Shown here piece by piece: positions 566 to 11,097 of a DNA stretch of 64,000 nucleotides. How positions within the stretch are numbered: the first letter of the stretch is position 1; the number at the start of each line of letters is the position of its first letter. The stretch is taken from assembly GCF_055900595.2 (NCBI RefSeq), contig NZ_CM148325.1; one strand, given 5' to 3'. Both the position numbers and the translations under genes were made by a program. The notes under the pieces were generated by a model. That model was not told the origin of the DNA and made no database searches. It was given only the letters and a program-made list of their open reading frames with translations.

Positions 566-961
<396 letters not shown>

Positions 962-995
962 TTGGCTTCTGCTCCGGCAGAAAACAATTTGCGAA

Positions 996-1020
996 AAAAC
1001 CCGCTTCGGCGGGTTTTTTT
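996..1020 (+). terminator. Rho-independent terminator of rplM-rpsI
   Basis: GC hairpin aaaacccgcttcggcgggttttttt followed by T-run, directly after rpsI stop. Confidence 0.7.
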
Positions 1021-1353
1021 ATGGCTAAAATCTGAATCAGCGTAAAAAAAGGAATGTTGATTTTTGCTATCGCCTGACAGACAGAAAACAAAAACCACAT
1101 CGCCGATAAGGGACTAAGTCAACCATTTCAGACTAAAGCGCATCTCTTTTTCCCCATTTCCGGCATCGACTCACCACAAAGGTCACAAAATCTGGTAAAC
1201 TATCATCCAATTTTCTGCCCAAATGTCGGGTATTGCTCATTTTTTGTTTGATTTTCGAACAAAGAGAGTCGTTCCTTACTGGGTAACACAACTTCTGACT
1301 GGCCACCTGGTGGCTGGTAGCAGTAAAAATTCTGACTATACCTGGAGGTTTTC

Positions 1354-1992
1354 ATGGCTGTCGCTGCCAACAAACGTTCGGTAATGACGCTGTTTTCCGG
1401 TCCTACTGACATCTATAGCCATCAGGTCCGCATTGTGCTGGCTGAGAAAGGTGTAAGTTTCGAGATCGAACACGTGGAAAAGGACAATCCGCCTCAGGAT
1501 CTGATTGACCTCAACCCGAATCAGAGCGTTCCGACCCTGGTGGATCGTGAGCTGACCCTGTGGGAATCTCGCATCATTATGGAATATCTGGATGAGCGTT
1601 TCCCGCATCCGCCACTGATGCCTGTTTACCCGGTAGCTCGCGGTGAAAGCCGTCTGTACATGCATCGCATCGAAAAAGACTGGTACACGCTGATGAACAC
1701 CATCATCAACGGTTCAGCTTCTGAAGCAGATGCCGCACGTAAGCAACTGCGCGAAGAACTGCTGGCGATTGCGCCGGTCTTCGGTCAGAAGCCGTACTTC
1801 CTGAGCGATGAGTTCAGCCTGGTCGATTGCTACCTTGCTCCGCTGCTGTGGCGTCTGCCGCAACTGGGCATCGAGTTCAGCGGCCCGGGTGCGAAAGAGC
1901 TGAAAGGCTATATGACCCGCGTCTTTGAACGTGACTCTTTCCTTGCTTCTTTAACTGAAGCTGAACGTGAAATGCGTCTGGGCCGGAGTTAA
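1354..1992 (+). CDS. sspA: stringent starvation protein A (GST-fold RNAP-associated protein)
   Basis: 212-aa ORF MAVAANKRSVMTLFSGPTDIYSHQVRIVLAEKGV...; recognised SspA, followed 5 bp later by sspB. Confidence 0.93.
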   Translation: MAVAANKRSVMTLFSGPTDIYSHQVRIVLAEKGVSFEIEHVEKDNPPQDLIDLNPNQSVPTLVDRELTLWESRIIMEYLDERFPHPPLMPVYPVARGESRLYMHRIEKDWYTLMNTIINGSASEADAARKQLREELLAIAPVFGQKPYFLSDEFSLVDCYLAPLLWRLPQLGIEFSGPGAKELKGYMTRVFERDSFLASLTEAEREMRLGRS

Positions 1993-1997
1993 TCTGT

Positions 1998-2495
1998 ATG
2001 GATTTGTCACAGCTAACACCACGTCGTCCCTATCTGCTGCGTGCATTCTATGAGTGGTTGCTGGATAACCAGCTCACGCCGCACCTGGTGGTGGATGTGA
2101 CGCTCCCTGGCGTGCAGGTTCCTATGGAATATGCGCGTGACGGGCAAATCGTACTCAACATTGCGCCGCGTGCTGTCGGCAATCTGGAACTGGCGAATGA
2201 TGAGGTGCGCTTTAACGCGCGCTTTGGTGGCATTCCGCGTCAGGTTTCTGTGCCGCTGGCTGCCGTGCTGGCTATCTACGCCCGTGAAAATGGCGCAGGC
2301 ACGATGTTTGAACCTGAAGCTGCCTACGATGAAGATGCCAGCATCATGAATGATGAAGAGGCATCGGCAGACAACGAAACCGTTATGTCGGTTATTGATG
2401 GCGACAAGCCAGATCACGATGATGACACTCATCCTGACGATGAACCACCGCAGCCACCACGCGGTGGTCGACCGGCATTACGCGTTGTGAAGTAA
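1998..2495 (+). CDS. sspB: ClpXP specificity-enhancing adaptor SspB
   Basis: 165-aa ORF MDLSQLTPRRPYLLRAFYEWLLDNQLTPHLVVD... with acidic C-terminal tail; recognised SspB. Confidence 0.93.
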   Translation: MDLSQLTPRRPYLLRAFYEWLLDNQLTPHLVVDVTLPGVQVPMEYARDGQIVLNIAPRAVGNLELANDEVRFNARFGGIPRQVSVPLAAVLAIYARENGAGTMFEPEAAYDEDASIMNDEEASADNETVMSVIDGDKPDHDDDTHPDDEPPQPPRGGRPALRVVK

Positions 2496-2499
2496 AATG

Positions 2500-2527
2500 A
2501 AAACAGGCCCTGGCGGCCTGTTTTGTC
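2500..2527. terminator. Bidirectional hairpin terminator between convergent sspB and dcuD
   Basis: aacaggccctggcggcctgtttt hairpin with flanking A/T runs between the two stop codons. Confidence 0.6.
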
Positions 2528-2538
2528 TTCTTTATCGC

Positions 2539-3906
2539 TTAATAAAATAGCGTGATTGTGGCAATCATATTCACCACGAAACCGACTGCCATGGGGATCG
2601 CTGTCCGCTTCACCACTGCAAAAGGCGAAACACCTGCAATTCCTGATGTAACGACCACCACCGCAGTAATCGGCGAAACAGCGCGCGCTAGCGTCGTGGC
2701 AAAATGCATCGGCATAATCATTACAACCGCAGGTACATGTAGTCCGGCTGCGATATTCGGAATAAGACTGGCAAATGACATAAATGGCGCATTGCCTGAG
2801 CCCATCACAATGGCACAAATGGCAATGACCAGCGCCATAATAATCATCACGCCAATACCGCCCAGACCAGAATGCTCCGCACCCCTGATAACCGCATCGA
2901 CAGTGCCAATTGTCGTTAAGCCCTTCGCAAATATTTCACCCGCGACCACCAGCGTTACCACGTTGGCAAACTGCGTACCCATGCCGTCAAAAAACGCCTG
3001 CACATCGTCCATTGTTTCGCGCAAATTATGCTTGCGGAAAAACTCAACAAACATCGTCACCGTCAAACTCAGTAACATCACCACCACCAGATGCAGTTCT
3101 GACTGCATCAGTCCAGCGTGGGCGAGGAACAGCGAGCCGAGCATCAGGATTAACGGCATCACCGGTAAAATGGCGTAATAAAGCGGTGGGACATTATCGA
3201 GAGCTTTTTGCTCCGCCTGCTCGTGATTGATATTTTTATCTTTTTTGTCAAAAGCGCGTTGCACGAAAAAGTGAGAGATCGCTACCGAGATAATGACGCA
3301 AGAGGCGACCGGAAGCTGGTAGTGGAAGAAGTAAGTGGCAATTTTCATTCCTGCCACCTGGGCCGCAAAAATAGAGTTCGTTTCCAGAATCCCCCACTCA
3401 ATGGACATCGTGGTTGCGATAACTGCCACCGCAGAGAGTCGACTTACTCCCAGACTCACCAGTGTCGGAAATAAGGTGACCATCAGCAACATACCCAGAC
3501 CGGAGGCGCTGGTAATAAACTGCGCCATGATTTGGCCGATGACGTAAGTTGCCGACAGAATAATATACGGCGAGCGAATGAGTTTTAACGGGCGGCTTAA
3601 CAAGCTCACCATCGCCCGACTGGCTCCTATGCGCTCCATGTAGCGGGCATACCCGCCCACCGCCATAATCGACAACCCTAACCCGGCAATGCGGTTGGAC
3701 AGCATGCGCAGGATTTCATTATAAATATCGACGATCAAGTAGCCGCTGCTTTGGGTGGGATCGAGTACTCCACCGAACCCTAACCAGACACCGCACATCA
3801 TCAGGAAGATACCTGCGGCAGCCAGCACCACTTGAGGTTTGTAGTTTTTCAGGATCAAATAGCCCATCGTCATTAATACGATGACAGATATAATTATGCC
3901 GAACAT
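2539..3906 (-). CDS. dcuD: C4-dicarboxylate transporter DcuD (DcuC family)
   Basis: ORF 2539..3924 minus; polytopic membrane protein; start trimmed to [11 protein letters not shown]... (455 aa) from recall of the DcuD N-terminus; position between sspB and nanR matches E. coli. Confidence 0.85.
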
Positions 3907-4284
3907 TGTTGAACTCCGTGTCAAAAGAAAACGGTCAATCCCATAAACGGCAGATTGAAAACAGTGATGTTATATTTTTTGCAAGGCTATTTATGGTGTT
4001 GGTGTCGTATTTTTTAATTCTGGATGAGGCAATTTTTCATTATAAAATATGCATTTATGATTATTTTGTAAGAACATATTCGTAATATTCATAATGCTTG
4101 TGAATAGTCTTATGAATAATTCATTCAGGATGTTTTATCGGCGTTACACTAATTTTCGCAATAGTTAATTATTACGTTAATTATGATAATAATGAGACAC
4201 AAAGAGAAAAAACCGCCATTTCCCCCTACTTTCAATCCTGTGATAGGATGTCACTGATGATGTTAATCACACTGACCTTACAGA

Positions 4285-5076
4285 ATGGGCCTTATGAACG
4301 CATTTGATTCGCAAACCGAAGATTCTTCACCTGCAATTGGTCGCAACTTGCGTAGCCGCCCGCTGGCGCGTAAGAAACTCTCCGAAATGGTGGAAGAAGA
4401 GCTGGAACAGATGATCCGCCGCCGTGAATTTGGCGAAGGTGAACAATTACCGTCTGAACGCGAACTGATGGCGTTCTTTAACGTCGGGCGTCCTTCTGTG
4501 CGCGAAGCGCTGGCAGCGTTAAAACGCAAAGGTCTGGTGCAAATAAACAACGGCGAACGTGCCCGCGTCTCGCGTCCTTCAGCGGACACCATCATCGGCG
4601 AGCTTTCCGGCATGGCGAAAGATTTCCTTTCTCATCCTGGCGGAATTGCCCATTTCGAACAATTACGTCTGTTCTTTGAATCCAGCCTGGTGCGCTATGC
4701 GGCTGAACACGCCACCGATGAGCAAATCGATTTGCTGGCAAAAGCACTGGAAATCAACAGTCAGTCGCTTGATAACAACGCGGCATTCATTCGTTCAGAC
4801 GTTGATTTCCACCGCGTGCTGGCGGAGATCCCCGGTAACCCAATCTTCATGGCGATCCATGTTGCCCTGCTCGATTGGCTGATCGCCGCGCGCCCAACGG
4901 TAGCTGATCAGGCTCTGCATGAGCATAACAACGTTAGCTATCAACAGCATATTGCGATCGTTGACGCGATCCGTCGTCATGATCCTGACGAAGCCGATCG
5001 CGCGTTGCAATCGCATCTCAACAGCGTCTCTGCTACCTGGCACGCCTTCGGTCAGACCACCAACAAAAAGAAATAA
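4285..5076 (+). CDS. nanR: GntR/FadR-family transcriptional repressor NanR
   Basis: 263-aa ORF with N-terminal winged-HTH region (…[54 protein letters not shown]…); lies immediately upstream of the Nan operator and nan operon. Confidence 0.9.
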
Positions 5077-5139
5077 TGCCACTTTAGTGAAGCAGATCGC
5101 ATTATAAGCTTTCTGTATGGGGTGTTGCTTAATTGATCT

Positions 5140-5162
5140 GGTATAACAGGTATAAAGGTATA
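5140..5162. promoter_or_regulatory. NanR operator (three direct GGTATA repeats) within the nanA promoter region
   Basis: ggtataacaggtataaaggtata read directly; matches the established Nan box. A GATC Dam site lies just upstream (aattgatctgg). Confidence 0.7.
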
Positions 5163-5176
5163 TCGTTTATCAGACA

Positions 5177-5185
5177 AGCATCACT
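5177..5185. repeat. Left copy of the 9-bp target-site duplication (AGCATCACT) flanking IS10
   Basis: Identical 9-mer agcatcact occurs immediately outside both IS10 termini (5177..5185 and 6515..6523). Confidence 0.9.
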
Positions 5186-5230
5186 CTGATGAATCCCCTA
5201 ATGATTTTGGTAAAAATCATTAAGTTAAGG

Positions 5231-5300
5231 TGGATACACATCTTGTCATATGATCAAATGGTTTCGCCAAAAATCAATAATCAGACAACAAAATGTGCGA
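5231..5300 (-). ncRNA. IS10 RNA-OUT antisense RNA (pOUT transcript), placed from recalled element coordinates
   Basis: Established IS10 architecture: pOUT transcript of about 69 nt starts near element bp 115 and runs toward the outside end, pairing with the 5' end of the transposase mRNA. Coordinates are inferred from element position, not from a visible signal. Confidence 0.4.
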
Positions 5301-6501
5301 ACTCGATATTTTACACGACTCTCTTTACCAATTCTGCCCCGAATTACACTTAAAACGACTCAACAGCTTAACGTTGGCTTGCCACGCCTTACTTGACTGT
5401 AAAACTCTCACTCTTACCGAACTTGGCCGTAACCTGCCAACCAAAGCGAGAACAAAACATAACATCAAACGAATCGACCGATTGTTAGGTAATCGTCACC
5501 TCCACAAAGAGCGACTCGCTGTATACCGTTGGCATGCTAGCTTTATCTGTTCGGGCAATACGATGCCCATTGTACTTGTTGACTGGTCTGATATCCGTGA
5601 GCAAAAACGGCTTATGGTATTGCGAGCTTCAGTCGCACTACACGGTCGTTCTGTTACTCTTTATGAGAAAGCGTTCCCGCTTTCAGAGCAATGTTCAAAG
5701 AAAGCTCATGACCAATTTCTAGCCGACCTTGCGAGCATTCTACCGAGTAACACCACACCGCTCATTGTCAGTGATGCTGGCTTTAAAGTGCCATGGTATA
5801 AATCCGTTGAGAAGCTGGGTTGGTACTGGTTAAGTCGAGTAAGAGGAAAAGTACAATATGCAGACCTAGGAGCGGAAAACTGGAAACCTATCAGCAACTT
5901 ACATGATATGTCATCTAGTCACTCAAAGACTTTAGGCTATAAGAGGCTGACTAAAAGCAATCCAATCTCATGCCAAATTCTATTGTATAAATCTCGCTCT
6001 AAAGGCCGAAAAAATCAGCGCTCGACACGGACTCATTGTCACCACCCGTCACCTAAAATCTACTCAGCGTCGGCAAAGGAGCCATGGATTCTAGCAACTA
6101 ACTTACCTGTTGAAATTCGAACACCCAAACAACTTGTTAATATCTATTCGAAGCGAATGCAGATTGAAGAAACCTTCCGAGACTTGAAAAGTCCTGCCTA
6201 CGGACTAGGCCTACGCCATAGCCGAACGAGCAGCTCAGAGCGTTTTGATATCATGCTGCTAATCGCCCTGATGCTTCAACTAACATGTTGGCTTGCGGGC
6301 GTTCATGCTCAGAAACAAGGTTGGGACAAGCACTTCCAGGCTAACACAGTCAGAAATCGAAACGTACTCTCAACAGTTCGCTTAGGCATGGAAGTTTTGC
6401 GGCATTCTGGCTACACAATAACAAGGGAAGACTCACTCGTGGCTGCAACCCTGCTTACTCAAAATCTATTCACACATGGTTACGTTTTGGGGAAATTATG
6501 A
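5293..6501 (+). CDS. IS10 transposase (DDE, IS4 family), apparently intact
   Basis: Uninterrupted 402-aa [67 protein letters not shown]...; recognised as Tn10/IS10 transposase. Confidence 0.95.
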
Positions 6502-6514
6502 GGGGATCTCTCAG

Positions 6515-6523
6515 AGCATCACT
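6515..6523. repeat. Right copy of the 9-bp target-site duplication (AGCATCACT) flanking IS10
   Basis: agcatcact immediately after the IS10 inside end; identical to 5177..5185. Confidence 0.9.
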
Positions 6524-6535
6524 TCAGAGGTATTT

Positions 6536-7429
6536 ATGGCAACGAATTTACGTGGCGTAATGGCCGCACTCCTGACTCCTTTTGATCAACAACAAGCACT
6601 GGATAAAGCGAGTCTGCGTCGCCTGGTTCAGTTCAATATTCAGCAGGGCATCGACGGTTTATACGTGGGTGGTTCTACCGGCGAAGCCTTTGTACAAAGC
6701 CTTTCCGAGCGTGAACAGGTACTGGAAATCGTCGCCGAAGAGGCGAAAGGCAAGATTAAACTCATCGCCCACGTCGGTTGCGTCAGCACTGCTGAAAGCC
6801 AACAACTTGCGGCATCGGCTAAACGTTATGGCTTCGATGCCGTCTCCGCTGTCACGCCGTTCTACTATCCTTTCAGCTTTGAAGAACACTGCGATCACTA
6901 TCGGGCAATTATTGATTCGGCGGATGGTTTGCCGATGGTGGTGTACAACATTCCGGCGTTAAGCGGCGTTAAACTGACCCTGGATCAGATTAACACTCTG
7001 GTTAAGTTGCCTGGTGTCGGCGCGCTGAAACAGACCTCTGGCGATCTCTATCAGATGGAGCAGATCCGTCGTGAACATCCGGATCTGGTGCTCTATAACG
7101 GTTACGACGAAATCTTTGCTTCTGGTTTGTTGGCGGGCGCTGATGGTGGTATCGGCAGTACTTACAACATCATGGGCTGGCGTTATCAGGGTATCGTGAA
7201 GGCGCTGAAAGAAGGCGATATCCAGACCGCGCAGAAGCTGCAAACCGAATGTAATAAAGTCATTGATTTACTGATCAAAACGGGCGTATTCCGCGGCCTG
7301 AAAACGGTCCTGCACTATATGGATGTCGTTTCTGTGCCGCTGTGCCGCAAACCGTTTGGTCCGGTCGATGAAAAATATCTGCCAGAACTGAAGGCGCTAG
7401 CCCAGCAGTTGATGCAAGAGCGCGGGTGA
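6536..7429 (+). CDS. nanA: N-acetylneuraminate lyase
   Basis: ORF 6476..7429 trimmed to [20 protein letters not shown]... (297 aa), preceded by SD gagg; DHDPS-family lyase; first gene of the nan operon. Confidence 0.92.
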
Positions 7430-7537: not shown

Positions 7538-9028
7538 ATGAGTACTACAACCCAGAATATCCCGTGGTATCGCCATCTCAACCGCGCACAATGGCGCGCA
7601 TTTTCCGCTGCCTGGTTGGGATATCTGCTTGACGGTTTTGATTTCGTTTTAATCGCCCTGGTACTCACCGAAGTACAAGGTGAATTCGGGCTGACGACGG
7701 TACAGGCGGCAAGTCTGATCTCCGCAGCCTTTATCTCTCGCTGGTTCGGCGGCCTGATGCTTGGCGCTATGGGCGACCGCTACGGGCGTCGTCTGGCAAT
7801 GGTTACCAGTATCGTTCTCTTCTCGGCCGGGACGCTGGCCTGCGGCTTTGCGCCAGGCTACATCACCATGTTTATTGCTCGTCTGGTCATCGGCATGGGG
7901 ATGGCGGGAGAATACGGCTCCAGCGCCACCTATGTCATTGAAAGCTGGCCAAAACATCTGCGTAACAAAGCCAGTGGCTTTCTGATTTCCGGCTTCTCGG
8001 TGGGTGCCGTCGTTGCCGCTCAGGTCTACAGCCTGGTGGTTCCGGTCTGGGGCTGGCGAGCGCTGTTCTTTATCGGCATTTTGCCAATCATCTTTGCTCT
8101 CTGGCTGCGTAAAAACATTCCGGAAGCGGAAGACTGGAAAGAGAAACACGCAGGTAAAGCACCAGTACGCACGATGGTAGACATTCTTTACCGTGGTGAA
8201 CATCGCATTGCCAATATCGTAATGACGCTGGCGGCGGCCACTGCGCTGTGGTTCTGCTTCGCTGGTAACCTGCAAAATGCCGCAATCGTCGCTGTTCTCG
8301 GGCTGTTATGTGCCGCAATCTTTATCAGCTTTATGGTTCAGAGTACGGGCAAACGCTGGCCAACGGGCGTAATGCTGATGGTGGTTGTGTTATTTGCTTT
8401 CCTCTACTCATGGCCGATTCAGGCACTGCTGCCAACGTATCTGAAAACCGATCTTGCTTATGACCCGCATACTGTCGCCAATGTGCTGTTCTTTAGTGGC
8501 TTTGGGGCGGCTGTGGGTTGCTGTGTCGGCGGCTTCCTCGGTGACTGGCTGGGAACCCGCAAAGCGTACGTTTGTAGCCTGCTGGCCTCGCAACTGCTGA
8601 TTATTCCGGTATTTGCGATTGGTGGCGCAAACGTCTGGGTGCTCGGTTTGTTACTGTTCTTCCAGCAAATGCTTGGACAAGGGATCGCCGGGATCTTACC
8701 GAAACTGATTGGCGGTTATTTCGATACCGACCAGCGTGCAGCGGGCCTGGGCTTTACCTACAACGTTGGCGCATTGGGCGGCGCACTGGCCCCAATCCTC
8801 GGCGCGTTGATCGCTCAACGTCTGGATCTGGGTACTGCGCTGGCATCGCTTTCGTTTAGCCTGACGTTCGTGGTGATCCTGCTGATTGGGCTGGATATGC
8901 CTTCTCGCGTTCAGCGTTGGTTGCGCCCGGAAGCGTTGCGTACTCATGACGCTATCGACGGCAAACCATTTAGCGGTGCCGTGCCGTTTGGCAGCGCTAA
9001 AAACGATTTAGTCAAAACCAAAAGTTAA
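7538..9028 (+). CDS. nanT: sialic acid transporter NanT (MFS)
   Basis: ORF 7508..9028 trimmed to [19 protein letters not shown]... (496 aa); polytopic MFS membrane protein following nanA. Confidence 0.92.
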
Positions 9029-9074: not shown

Positions 9075-9760
9075 ATGTCGTTACTTGCACAACTGGATCA
9101 AAAAATCGCTGCTAACGGTGGCCTGATTGTCTCCTGCCAGCCGGTTCCGGACAGCCCACTCGATAAACCTGAAATCGTCGCCGCCATGGCATTAGCGGCA
9201 GAGCAGGCGGGAGCGGTTGCCATTCGTATTGAAGGTGTGGCAAATCTGCAAGCCACGCGTGCGGTGGTGAGCGTGCCAATTATCGGGATTGTCAAACGCG
9301 ATCTGGAGGATTCTCCGGTACGCATCACGGCATATATTGAAGATGTCGATGCGCTGGCGCAGGCAGGCGCGGATATCATCGCGATTGACGGCACCGACCG
9401 ACCGCGTCCGGTGCCTGTTGAAACGCTACTGGCACGTATCCACCATCACGGTTTACTGGCGATGACCGACTGCTCAACGCCGGAAGACGGCCTGGCATGC
9501 CAAAAGCTGGGAGCCGAAATTATTGGCACTACGCTTTCTGGCTATACCACACCTGAAACGCCAGAAGAGCCGGATCTGGCGCTGGTGAAAACGTTGAGCG
9601 ACGCCGGATGTCGGGTGATTGCCGAAGGGCGTTACAACACGCCTGCTCAGGCGGCGGATGCGATGCGCCACGGCGCATGGGCGGTGACGGTCGGTTCTGC
9701 TATCACACGTCTTGAACACATTTGCCAGTGGTACAACACAGCGATGAAAAAGGCGGTGCT

Positions 9761-9764
<4 letters not shown>
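9075..9764 (+). CDS. nanE: N-acetylmannosamine-6-phosphate 2-epimerase
   Basis: 229-aa [38 protein letters not shown]...; recognised NanE. Confidence 0.92.

Positions 9765-11097
<1,333 letters not shown>

Follow-up and report, generated by a model that had tools for sequence, protein, structure and literature searches.

The question raised by this locus is how the sialic acid catabolic operon nanATEK-yhcH can be expressed when a complete IS10 element lies between nanA and the promoter and operator through which the repressor NanR controls it. The window that was analysed comprises 64,000 nt of contig NZ_CM148325.1 (assembly GCF_055900595.2) and represents one Escherichia coli strain. Our preferred answer, which on the basis of the sequence we hold to be probable, is that IS10 in the nanA leader acts as a polar insertion that would strongly lower inducible nan expression and leave regulated read-through together with weak constitutive transcription from IS10. 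The elements of the locus are the following.

4285-5076, plus strand: nanR, GntR/FadR-family repressor of the sialoregulon, intact, 263 aa
5086-5101, plus strand: candidate CRP site AGTGAAGCAGATCGCA, a half-palindrome upstream of the Nan boxes with 2 mismatches to TGTGAN6TCACA
5140-5162, plus strand: NanR operator GGTATAACAGGTATAAAGGTATA, three GGTATA boxes (5140, 5149, 5157) with 3- and 2-nt spacers
5177-5185 and 6515-6523, no strand: left and right copies of the 9-bp target-site duplication AGCATCACT, an exact direct repeat flanking IS10
5186-6514, plus strand: IS10 (IS4-like element ISVsa5 in the PGAP annotation), full-length, exactly 1329 bp, outside end left, inside end right
5293-6501, plus strand: IS10 transposase gene (IS10 nt 108-1316), a single intact ORF for a DDE protein of 402 aa, co-directional with nanA
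6526-6530, plus strand: nanA Shine-Dalgarno sequence AGAGG, within the 12 bp between the right target duplication and the ATG
6536-7429, plus strand: nanA, N-acetylneuraminate lyase, intact
7538-9028, plus strand: nanT, full length
9075-9764, plus strand: nanE, full length
9761-10636, plus strand: nanK, full length
10633-11097, plus strand: yhcH (nanQ in the PGAP annotation), full length

The last four genes were mapped from the annotation of the relative E200086, which carries the empty site, and from the ORF list. The products of nanR and nanA match their profiles well above the cut-offs (NCBIfam NF003011, 408.9 bits against 260, and TIGR00683, 571.8 bits against 382, respectively), and between 3395 and 5185 E200086 differs from the window by one mismatch, at 4009, outside nanR. 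The part of the operon downstream of nanA carries one private nonsynonymous SNP, at 10864. The nan operon is without decay, which fits either a very recent insertion or retained function.

The regulatory region to the left of the element is complete. The (GGTATA)3 pattern occurs once in the window and not at all in 100 shuffles, and its three boxes stand where the first-pass annotation had placed them. We take fimB to be among the targets of NanR. The (GGTATA)3 motif is described as the NanR operator, and nanCMS and yjhBC are further targets of this repressor (PMC8012715, PMC3658417). In the nanA promoter, this operator lies across the -10 element (PMC8786299, PMC8012715), and IS10 is therefore located in the 5' leader, downstream of both promoter and operator. 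Secondary statements in the literature would place the nanA transcription start at approximately 5155-5172, upstream of IS10, so that the element would have entered some 15-30 nt past the start under NanR/CRP control and directly upstream of the Shine-Dalgarno sequence. The assumption of the first-pass annotation that the native start does not lie downstream of 6523 holds, since only 12 bp, including the Shine-Dalgarno sequence, are left there. By virtue of its position, the half-palindrome at 5086-5101 may serve the nanA promoter as its CRP site; the window contains 14 matches to the CRP consensus versus 27.8 expected, and this match is not significant alone.

The geometry proposed earlier was reproduced almost to the nucleotide. 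The gap between the last Nan box and IS10 is 23 bp (about 25 bp had been given), the gap between the right target duplication and the nanA ATG (6536-6538) is exactly 12 bp, and the displacement of the operon from its native promoter, put at 1.3 kb, measures 1338 bp (1329 + 9). The contiguity of the native arrangement, in which 35 nt separate the last box from the ATG, is thus broken here, while it is kept in 5,408 of the 5,409 genomes having the region. The transposase ORF reads rightward and therefore the IS10 promoter pOUT reads leftward, to nanR; the outside end, which carries pOUT, is turned to nanR and the inside end to nanA, which agrees with the earlier statement that pOUT points away from nanA and is antisense to the 3' end of nanR.

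IS10 is represented here by a complete copy. Its outside end starts with CTGATGAATCCCC on the left, its inside end finishes with GGGGATCTCTCAG on the right, and its terminal inverted repeats are imperfect, with agreement at 17 of the first 22 positions. Compared with the Tn10 copies on R100, the element is 99.7% identical (4 mismatches) to the jemA-side copy and 99.2% identical (11 mismatches) to the tetD-side copy; copies that are 100% identical are present in E. coli 55989 and in OZ546963.1. The transposase matches the IS4 family transposase profile NCBIfam NF033591 (E = 1.5e-120) and is identical to the protein of the jemA-side copy (IS10-left) of R100, and its reading frame stops 35 nt ahead of the nanA ATG. 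Dam sites (GATC) are located at IS10 nt 67 (5252-5255, in the -10 element of the transposase promoter pIN) and at nt 1320 (6505, in the inside end). The duplicated sequence AGCATCACT, which occurs once in the empty site of 5,408 genomes, agrees with the relaxed target consensus NRCNNNGYN (quoted in PMC4574204) at 3 of the 4 specified positions and with the GCTNAGC core at 3 of 6, and the target is therefore not an IS10 hot spot.

Neither IS10 junction was found in any of 5,426 complete E. coli genomes, and searches with the exact junction sequences were also negative among metagenome contigs and species-representative genomes. When the empty site was reconstructed and used as a 483-bp query, it proved to be present in 5,408 genomes, in 8 of which it is identical over the full query; these 8 genomes are about 99.99% identical to the window over 24.5 kb, and E200086 differs from it by 8 mismatches in 57,486 bp. 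A disruption of any kind in the 483-bp nanR-nanA region affects at most one of the 5,409 genomes, and therefore this arrangement normally stays intact. A literature search for IS10 together with nanA returned nothing relevant. Judged from these comparisons, the insertion is strain-private and recent. An insertion unique to one sequence could also be an assembly or cloning artefact that is absent from the chromosome of the organism, especially as transposition of IS10 into cloned DNA is a known event in the E. coli hosts used in laboratories (PMC4574204). We give this explanation hardly any credence: the complete element with both ends lies between exact copies of a 9-bp sequence that the relatives contain once, which indicates true transposition and not mis-joined contigs, the allele is the same as that of natural chromosomal copies such as the one in strain 55989, and even if IS10 had jumped while the strain was being cultured, the mutation would be real.

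What could be transcribed from within the element depends on the promoters of IS10, the anatomy of which, including the overlap of a Dam site with the pIN -10 element, is published (PMC5006887) and agrees with the sequence of the window.

5232-5300, minus strand: RNA-OUT antisense RNA, 69 nt, from the pOUT start at IS10 nt 115 to the end at nt 47; coordinates transferred from PMC5006887
5249-5254, plus strand: pIN -10 element TATGAT, overlapping the Dam site GATC at 5252-5255; RNA-IN start near 5266 (IS10 nt 81)
6185-6415, plus strand: segment (IS10 nt 1000-1230) reported to contain the outward promoters pIII and OUTIIp (PMC11481808, PMC4574204)

Longer pOUT transcripts can exit IS10 (PMC9330008). 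A strict promoter scan of 5000-6700 returned no sites; it also misses the known pIN and pOUT and is therefore uninformative on promoters here. A looser scan with position weight matrices recovers both pIN and pOUT at their published positions (for pOUT, a -10 element TAAAAT at 5313-5308 and a start near 5301), where promoter activity is thus predicted; it gives many equal-scoring matches elsewhere and does not pinpoint pIII/OUTIIp. The segment assigned to the latter is identical to both R100 copies, and transcription from pIII/OUTIIp would cross the inside end and continue into nanA. A promoter newly created at the inside end, one of the two sources of nanA transcription envisaged in the first-pass annotation, finds no counterpart in the scans: no pair with a -35 element in the IS10 end and a -10 element in the flank straddles the junction in the looser scan, and the nearest candidate, TTCACA-17-GAAATT (6469-6497), lies wholly within IS10 and has a poor -10 element. 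We thus found no convincing hybrid promoter at the IS10-nanA junction in either scan. The other source, read-through from pIN, may contribute, and the original list is incomplete in that it omits the intact native NanR/CRP promoter as well as pIII/OUTIIp.

Terminators and RNA structure determine how far transcripts entering the element from the left may proceed. On the plus strand of IS10 there is one weak 5-bp stem, at 5553-5568, versus 1.4 expected by chance, which makes no convincing intrinsic terminator, and no terminator-like site is present from 5569 to nanA; the same holds for the minus strand from pOUT to nanR. Any polarity would therefore rest wholly on Rho and poor translation. RNA folding predicts that the segment 5237-5247, present in read-through RNA, pairs back onto the AUG of the transposase, and that the transposase ribosome-binding region, unpaired with a probability of 0.55 in the pIN transcript, reaches no more than 0.30-0.32 when the RNA stems from read-through. 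Between 5280 and 5480 the C/G ratio amounts to 2.0-2.5. The ribosome-binding region of nanA has a predicted accessibility of 0.40-0.42 in all contexts. A change of nanA translation by IS10 was rejected, the predicted accessibility of the Shine-Dalgarno sequence and AUG being the same with and without the element; an in-frame ATG at 6476 was likewise rejected as a new NanA start because it is not preceded by a Shine-Dalgarno sequence.

The polar insertion that we favour would then operate as follows. Transcripts from the native promoter would enter IS10 through the outside end, and the start codon of the transposase would be hidden in them by the fold-back pairing, so that approximately 1.2 kb of RNA would be poorly translated. 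Being C-rich and G-poor near its start, this RNA would be prone to Rho-dependent termination, and the native transcripts would in addition collide head-on with transcription from pOUT. Poor translation, Rho termination and head-on pOUT transcription together would cause a strong drop of the sialic-acid-inducible expression of nanATEK-yhcH. Two residual activities may remain: a small NanR/CRP-dependent fraction of read-through from the native promoter, and weak constitutive, NanR-independent transcription from the Dam-sensitive pIN and from pIII/OUTIIp. With the initiation of nanA translation itself unaffected, the net phenotype would be slower or no growth on sialic acid and a raised uninduced floor. 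The expectation that expression becomes independent of NanR and of sialic acid would accordingly apply to transcripts derived from IS10, whereas transcripts reaching nanA from the native promoter would remain under regulation; the broader form of this expectation, reduced and/or deregulated nan expression, is plausible. Every functional step, whether it concerns expression or growth, is deduced from the DNA sequence.

The induction of nanA can reach about 1000-fold (PMC3658417), and therefore a few percent of read-through could suffice for growth on sialic acid. This very large range, the intact promoter, operator, nanR and nan genes, and the plus strand of IS10 without a significant intrinsic terminator would all be compatible with an element that is functionally almost silent, its 1.3 kb being read through efficiently and the operon remaining normally inducible and regulated by NanR and CRP. 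We nevertheless think it unlikely that so little has changed: the hidden transposase start makes the read-through RNA long, poorly translated, C-rich and Rho-prone, head-on transcription from pOUT begins only about 140 bp away from the native start, and at most 1 in 5,409 genomes has a disruption in the 483-bp region, which is thus normally preserved.

The polar insertion may be compared with several known cases. In the classical polar insertions of Tn10 and IS10, external transcription likewise enters through the outside end, and the fold-back of the transposase start was reproduced by folding here; the external promoter at nan, in contrast, is a natural and sialic-acid-inducible one, and the polarity is deduced. 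Davis, Simons and Kleckner reportedly described in 1985 the self-protection of Tn10 from external promoters and fold-back inhibition. In evolved E. coli rpoS mutants, IS10 was found at +12/+13 of the otsBA leader, with pOUT toward the operon in all lines (Stoebel et al. 2009, PMC2744996). The element is the same, it lies in a 5' leader a few nt past the start, in a non-consensus target, and the operon is severed from its native regulated promoter; there, however, pOUT faces and drives the operon and was repeatedly selected, whereas here it is the inside end that is turned to nanA, and nothing points to selection. In pSU/pSW vectors, IS10 was found to separate the cat ORF from Pcat (Gonzalez-Prieto et al. 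2015, PMC4574204). Both insertions lie between a -10 element and an ORF (for cat, 22 bp past the -10 and 53 bp before the ATG) and have duplicated 9 bp of a non-canonical target, but in the cat case IS10 nt 1329 adjoins the promoter, pOUT faces cat, and the insertion is plasmid-borne and was selected with chloramphenicol. Activation of the pOUT type has the outside end toward the gene, and the orientation at nanA is the reverse of that at otsBA and cat. The nearest functional analogue is an IS10-left in the promoter PJ23116 of a mevalonate operon (PMC11481808), where only pIII/OUTIIp were inferred to read into the operon and expression was interpreted as reduced but non-zero. That promoter is a synthetic constitutive one on a plasmid, it was disrupted and the expression was inferred, while the nanA promoter is intact and regulated.

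Alternatively, the insertion might be adaptive, with pIII/OUTIIp providing substantial constitutive expression of the nan operon independently of NanR, which would keep its other targets. IS10 reportedly has outward-facing promoters at each end (PMC4574204), and pIII/OUTIIp were proposed as a rescue of an operon after promoter disruption (PMC11481808); no terminator separates their segment from nanA, and the ribosome-binding region of nanA is intact. Such rewiring is nonetheless distinctly improbable in our estimate: experimental selection for activation brought pOUT, not the inside end, toward the gene (PMC2744996, PMC4574204), the insertion is found in a single genome without sign of spread, and the one case cited (PMC11481808) credits the inside-end promoters with "just sufficient" expression only. 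Selected rewiring to a low constitutive, NanR-independent nan expression, which would at the same time put the IS10 transposase and the activity of the outside end under a sialic-acid-inducible promoter, has a still slimmer chance of being correct. If true, it would mean that transposition of this IS10 copy responds to a gut nutrient.

The polar insertion in the nanA leader, our preferred reading, adds one more case to a well-known class of mutations and holds no new biology beyond this strain; both the insertion of an IS between a promoter and a gene and the way in which IS10 is transcribed are textbook matters. Sialic acid is a nutrient that comes from the host, and blockage or deregulation of the nan operon would probably make a strain less able to use it. 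Poorer use of sialic acid would be expected to weaken gut colonisation. Every nan gene is intact and the locus looks complete, and therefore methods based on gene content would call this strain sialic-acid-positive and miss the likely regulatory defect.

A complete IS10 lies between the NanR operator and nanA in the window, and the nan region is composed as follows:

4285-5076, plus strand: nanR (NCBIfam NanR, 408.9 bits, cut-off 260)
starts at 5140, 5149 and 5157: three GGTATA boxes downstream of nanR
5177-5185 and 6515-6523: 9-bp direct repeat AGCATCACT, directly abutting both IS10 ends
5186-6514: IS10, exactly 1329 bp, beginning with CTGATGAATCCCCTAATG (outside end, left) and finishing with GAGGGGATCTCTCAG (inside end, right)
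start near 5266, plus strand: RNA-IN, transferred from published anatomy
5300 leftward to 5232, minus strand: RNA-OUT, transferred likewise
5293-6501 (IS10 nt 108-1316): transposase ORF, 402 aa, IS4 family (NF033591, E = 1.5e-120)
within the 12 bases between the right repeat (ending at 6523) and the nanA start: nanA Shine-Dalgarno AGAGG
start at 6536, plus strand: nanA (TIGR00683, 571.8 bits)
downstream of nanA: nanT, nanE, nanK and yhcH (PGAP name nanQ), every one full length

The GGTATA array GGTATAACAGGTATAAAGGTATA is matched once in the window and in none of 100 shuffles. The positions that the first-pass annotation assigned to the boxes, the IS10, the duplication and nanA are all correct, the only discrepancy being the gap between boxes and IS10, given there as "about 25" bp and measuring 23 bp. 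Within IS10, the ATG at 6476 shares the nanA reading frame, uninterrupted by a stop, and opens an ORF of 317 aa (6476-7429) with 20 added N-terminal codons; because no Shine-Dalgarno sequence precedes it, this ATG is probably a mere annotation hazard.

According to two papers, the NanR operator is located in the promoter region (PMC8012715) and overlaps the -10 element (PMC8786299). The boxes contain the -10-like hexamers TATAAC (5142), TATAAA (5151) and TATATC (5159), which would place the nanA transcription start in about 5155-5172. Under every reading of the start, the insertion point (5185/5186) is in the transcribed leader, 3' of the promoter and operator and 5' of the Shine-Dalgarno sequence. 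A native start downstream of 6523, the alternative raised in the first-pass annotation, can be set aside since only 12 bp are left there. A CRP-like candidate at 5086-5101, alone not statistically significant, has its centre 61.5 bp 5' of a start at 5155. Another CRP-like sequence, GATGATGTTAATCACA (4256-4271, two consensus mismatches, likewise non-significant), immediately precedes the start codon of nanR. Partial complementarity exists between the nan leader and the outside end of IS10 (GUUUAUCAGA and UCUGAUGAAU, window 5165-5194), probably by chance, and RNA folding predicts a new 10-bp hairpin over the left junction in read-through RNA from the nan promoter.

Relative to the Tn10 copies on R100 (L003, 9501-10829 and 17319-18647), the element differs from IS10-left (on the jemA side) by 4 mismatches and from IS10-right (on the tetD side) by 11, and is a mosaic, right-type over nt 1-47 and left-type over nt 83-1329. 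Its transposase is the IS10-left protein, which differs from that of IS10-right at 4 residues; textbooks describe IS10-left as the copy with weak activity. GATC occurs at nt 67 and at nt 1320, the latter being the known Dam site of the inside end. The published Dam site overlying the -10 of the transposase promoter pIN (PMC5006887) is the GATC at nt 67, and a simple PWM scan located -10/-35 pairs exactly at the transferred RNA-IN and RNA-OUT positions.

Full-length IS10 copies are common, being present in 1,173 of 5,426 complete E. coli genomes (at up to 45 places per genome); a 100% identical copy occurs in only 2 of the 5,426, and the nearest natural E. coli copies among the matches listed differ from that of the window by 1-3 mismatches. 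Neither junction was found in any of the 5,426 genomes (presence requiring a place covering at least 80% of the junction query), and the exact junction strings were absent from metagenome contigs and species-representative genomes. The empty site, queried as the 483 bp of window sequence minus IS10 and one duplication copy, was found in 5,408 genomes, 8 of which are identical over all 483 bp and also have a rounded identity of 100.0% to window 6524-31000; this nanR-nanA stretch is interrupted in at most 1 of the 5,409 genomes having the region. One of the 8, E200086 (stool, Mali), has 8 mismatches to the window in 57,486 bp, with 1 in 3395-5185. Since the junctions are absent elsewhere and near-identical relatives have the empty site, the sequence comparison identifies the insertion as a private, recent event, with the locus intact in other sequenced lineage members.

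Another of the 8 mismatches, at 10864, is nonsynonymous and falls in the last operon gene, yhcH/nanQ (10633-11097; Lys78 in the window, Glu78 in E200086). Upstream of nanR, the C4-dicarboxylate transporter gene of E200086 (PGAP name dcuC) carries an internal stop and is interrupted by an element of the IS3 family; its window counterpart is an intact 461-aa ORF (2539-3924, minus strand; window 803-3924 compared with L001 1-4528). Window 803-3398 is 98.9% identical to E200086 (28 mismatches) as against 99.99% for the other 59 kb, which suggests a recombination patch adjoining the nan locus.

Leader insertions of IS10 are well documented. In the otsBA case (between +12 and +13) and the cat case (22 bp past the -10), the recovered orientation directs the outward promoter pOUT towards the gene, whereas the nan insertion is reversed, which argues against selected activation. 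Its nearest analogue is an IS10-left in a plasmid promoter, for which residual expression from pIII/OUTIIp was proposed (PMC11481808). The PWM scan found no hybrid promoter at the IS10-nanA junction; the best near-end candidate, TTCACA-17-GAAATT (6469-6497), lies entirely within IS10 and has a poor -10.

The intact native promoter would fire into the IS10 outside end and be opposed head-on by the strong pOUT, with starts just ~140 bp apart. pOUT is indeed aimed at nanR, as proposed earlier, with no minus-strand terminator-like site between it and the nanR 3' end. RNA folded from an assumed start at 5150 or 5165 through 5400 reproduces the known fold-back pairing of 5237-5247 with the transposase AUG region, and the ribosome-binding region, predicted to be unpaired with a probability of 0.55 on the pIN transcript, reaches only 0.30-0.32 on read-through RNA, whose translation should therefore be poor. 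Over its first 200 nt the transposase message is rich in C and poor in G (C/G ratio 2.0-2.5), a composition that would favour Rho loading. The sole intrinsic-terminator-like site on the IS10 plus strand is weak and not above chance expectation, so that polarity would be Rho-dependent and partial.

Transcription begun inside IS10 could also reach nanA. One source would be pIN, weak and Dam-sensitive; pIII and OUTIIp are mapped, in PMC11481808, to IS10 nt 1000-1230, here 6185-6415, a segment identical to both R100 copies and followed by no detected terminator-like site before nanA. As predicted accessibility of the nanA Shine-Dalgarno/AUG is 0.40-0.42 on the native and all IS10-derived leaders, nanA translation initiation should be unchanged. 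Overall, induced expression is predicted to reach a far lower maximum, and the basal, NanR-independent level to rise somewhat. Induction of the native operon is up to 1000-fold, and therefore a small read-through fraction could still permit some inducible growth on sialic acid.

The separation of operator and promoter from the operon is confirmed, and its interpretation as reduced or deregulated expression is partly supported: the anatomy and general prediction are sound, but not all transcript sources had been listed, and the phenotype remains a prediction. The allele is an ordinary, not previously catalogued IS10 insertion of a well-understood kind, with no pointer to new biology. It bears on the sialic-acid phenotype predicted for the strain and is a caution that intact genes throughout a locus do not preclude broken regulation.
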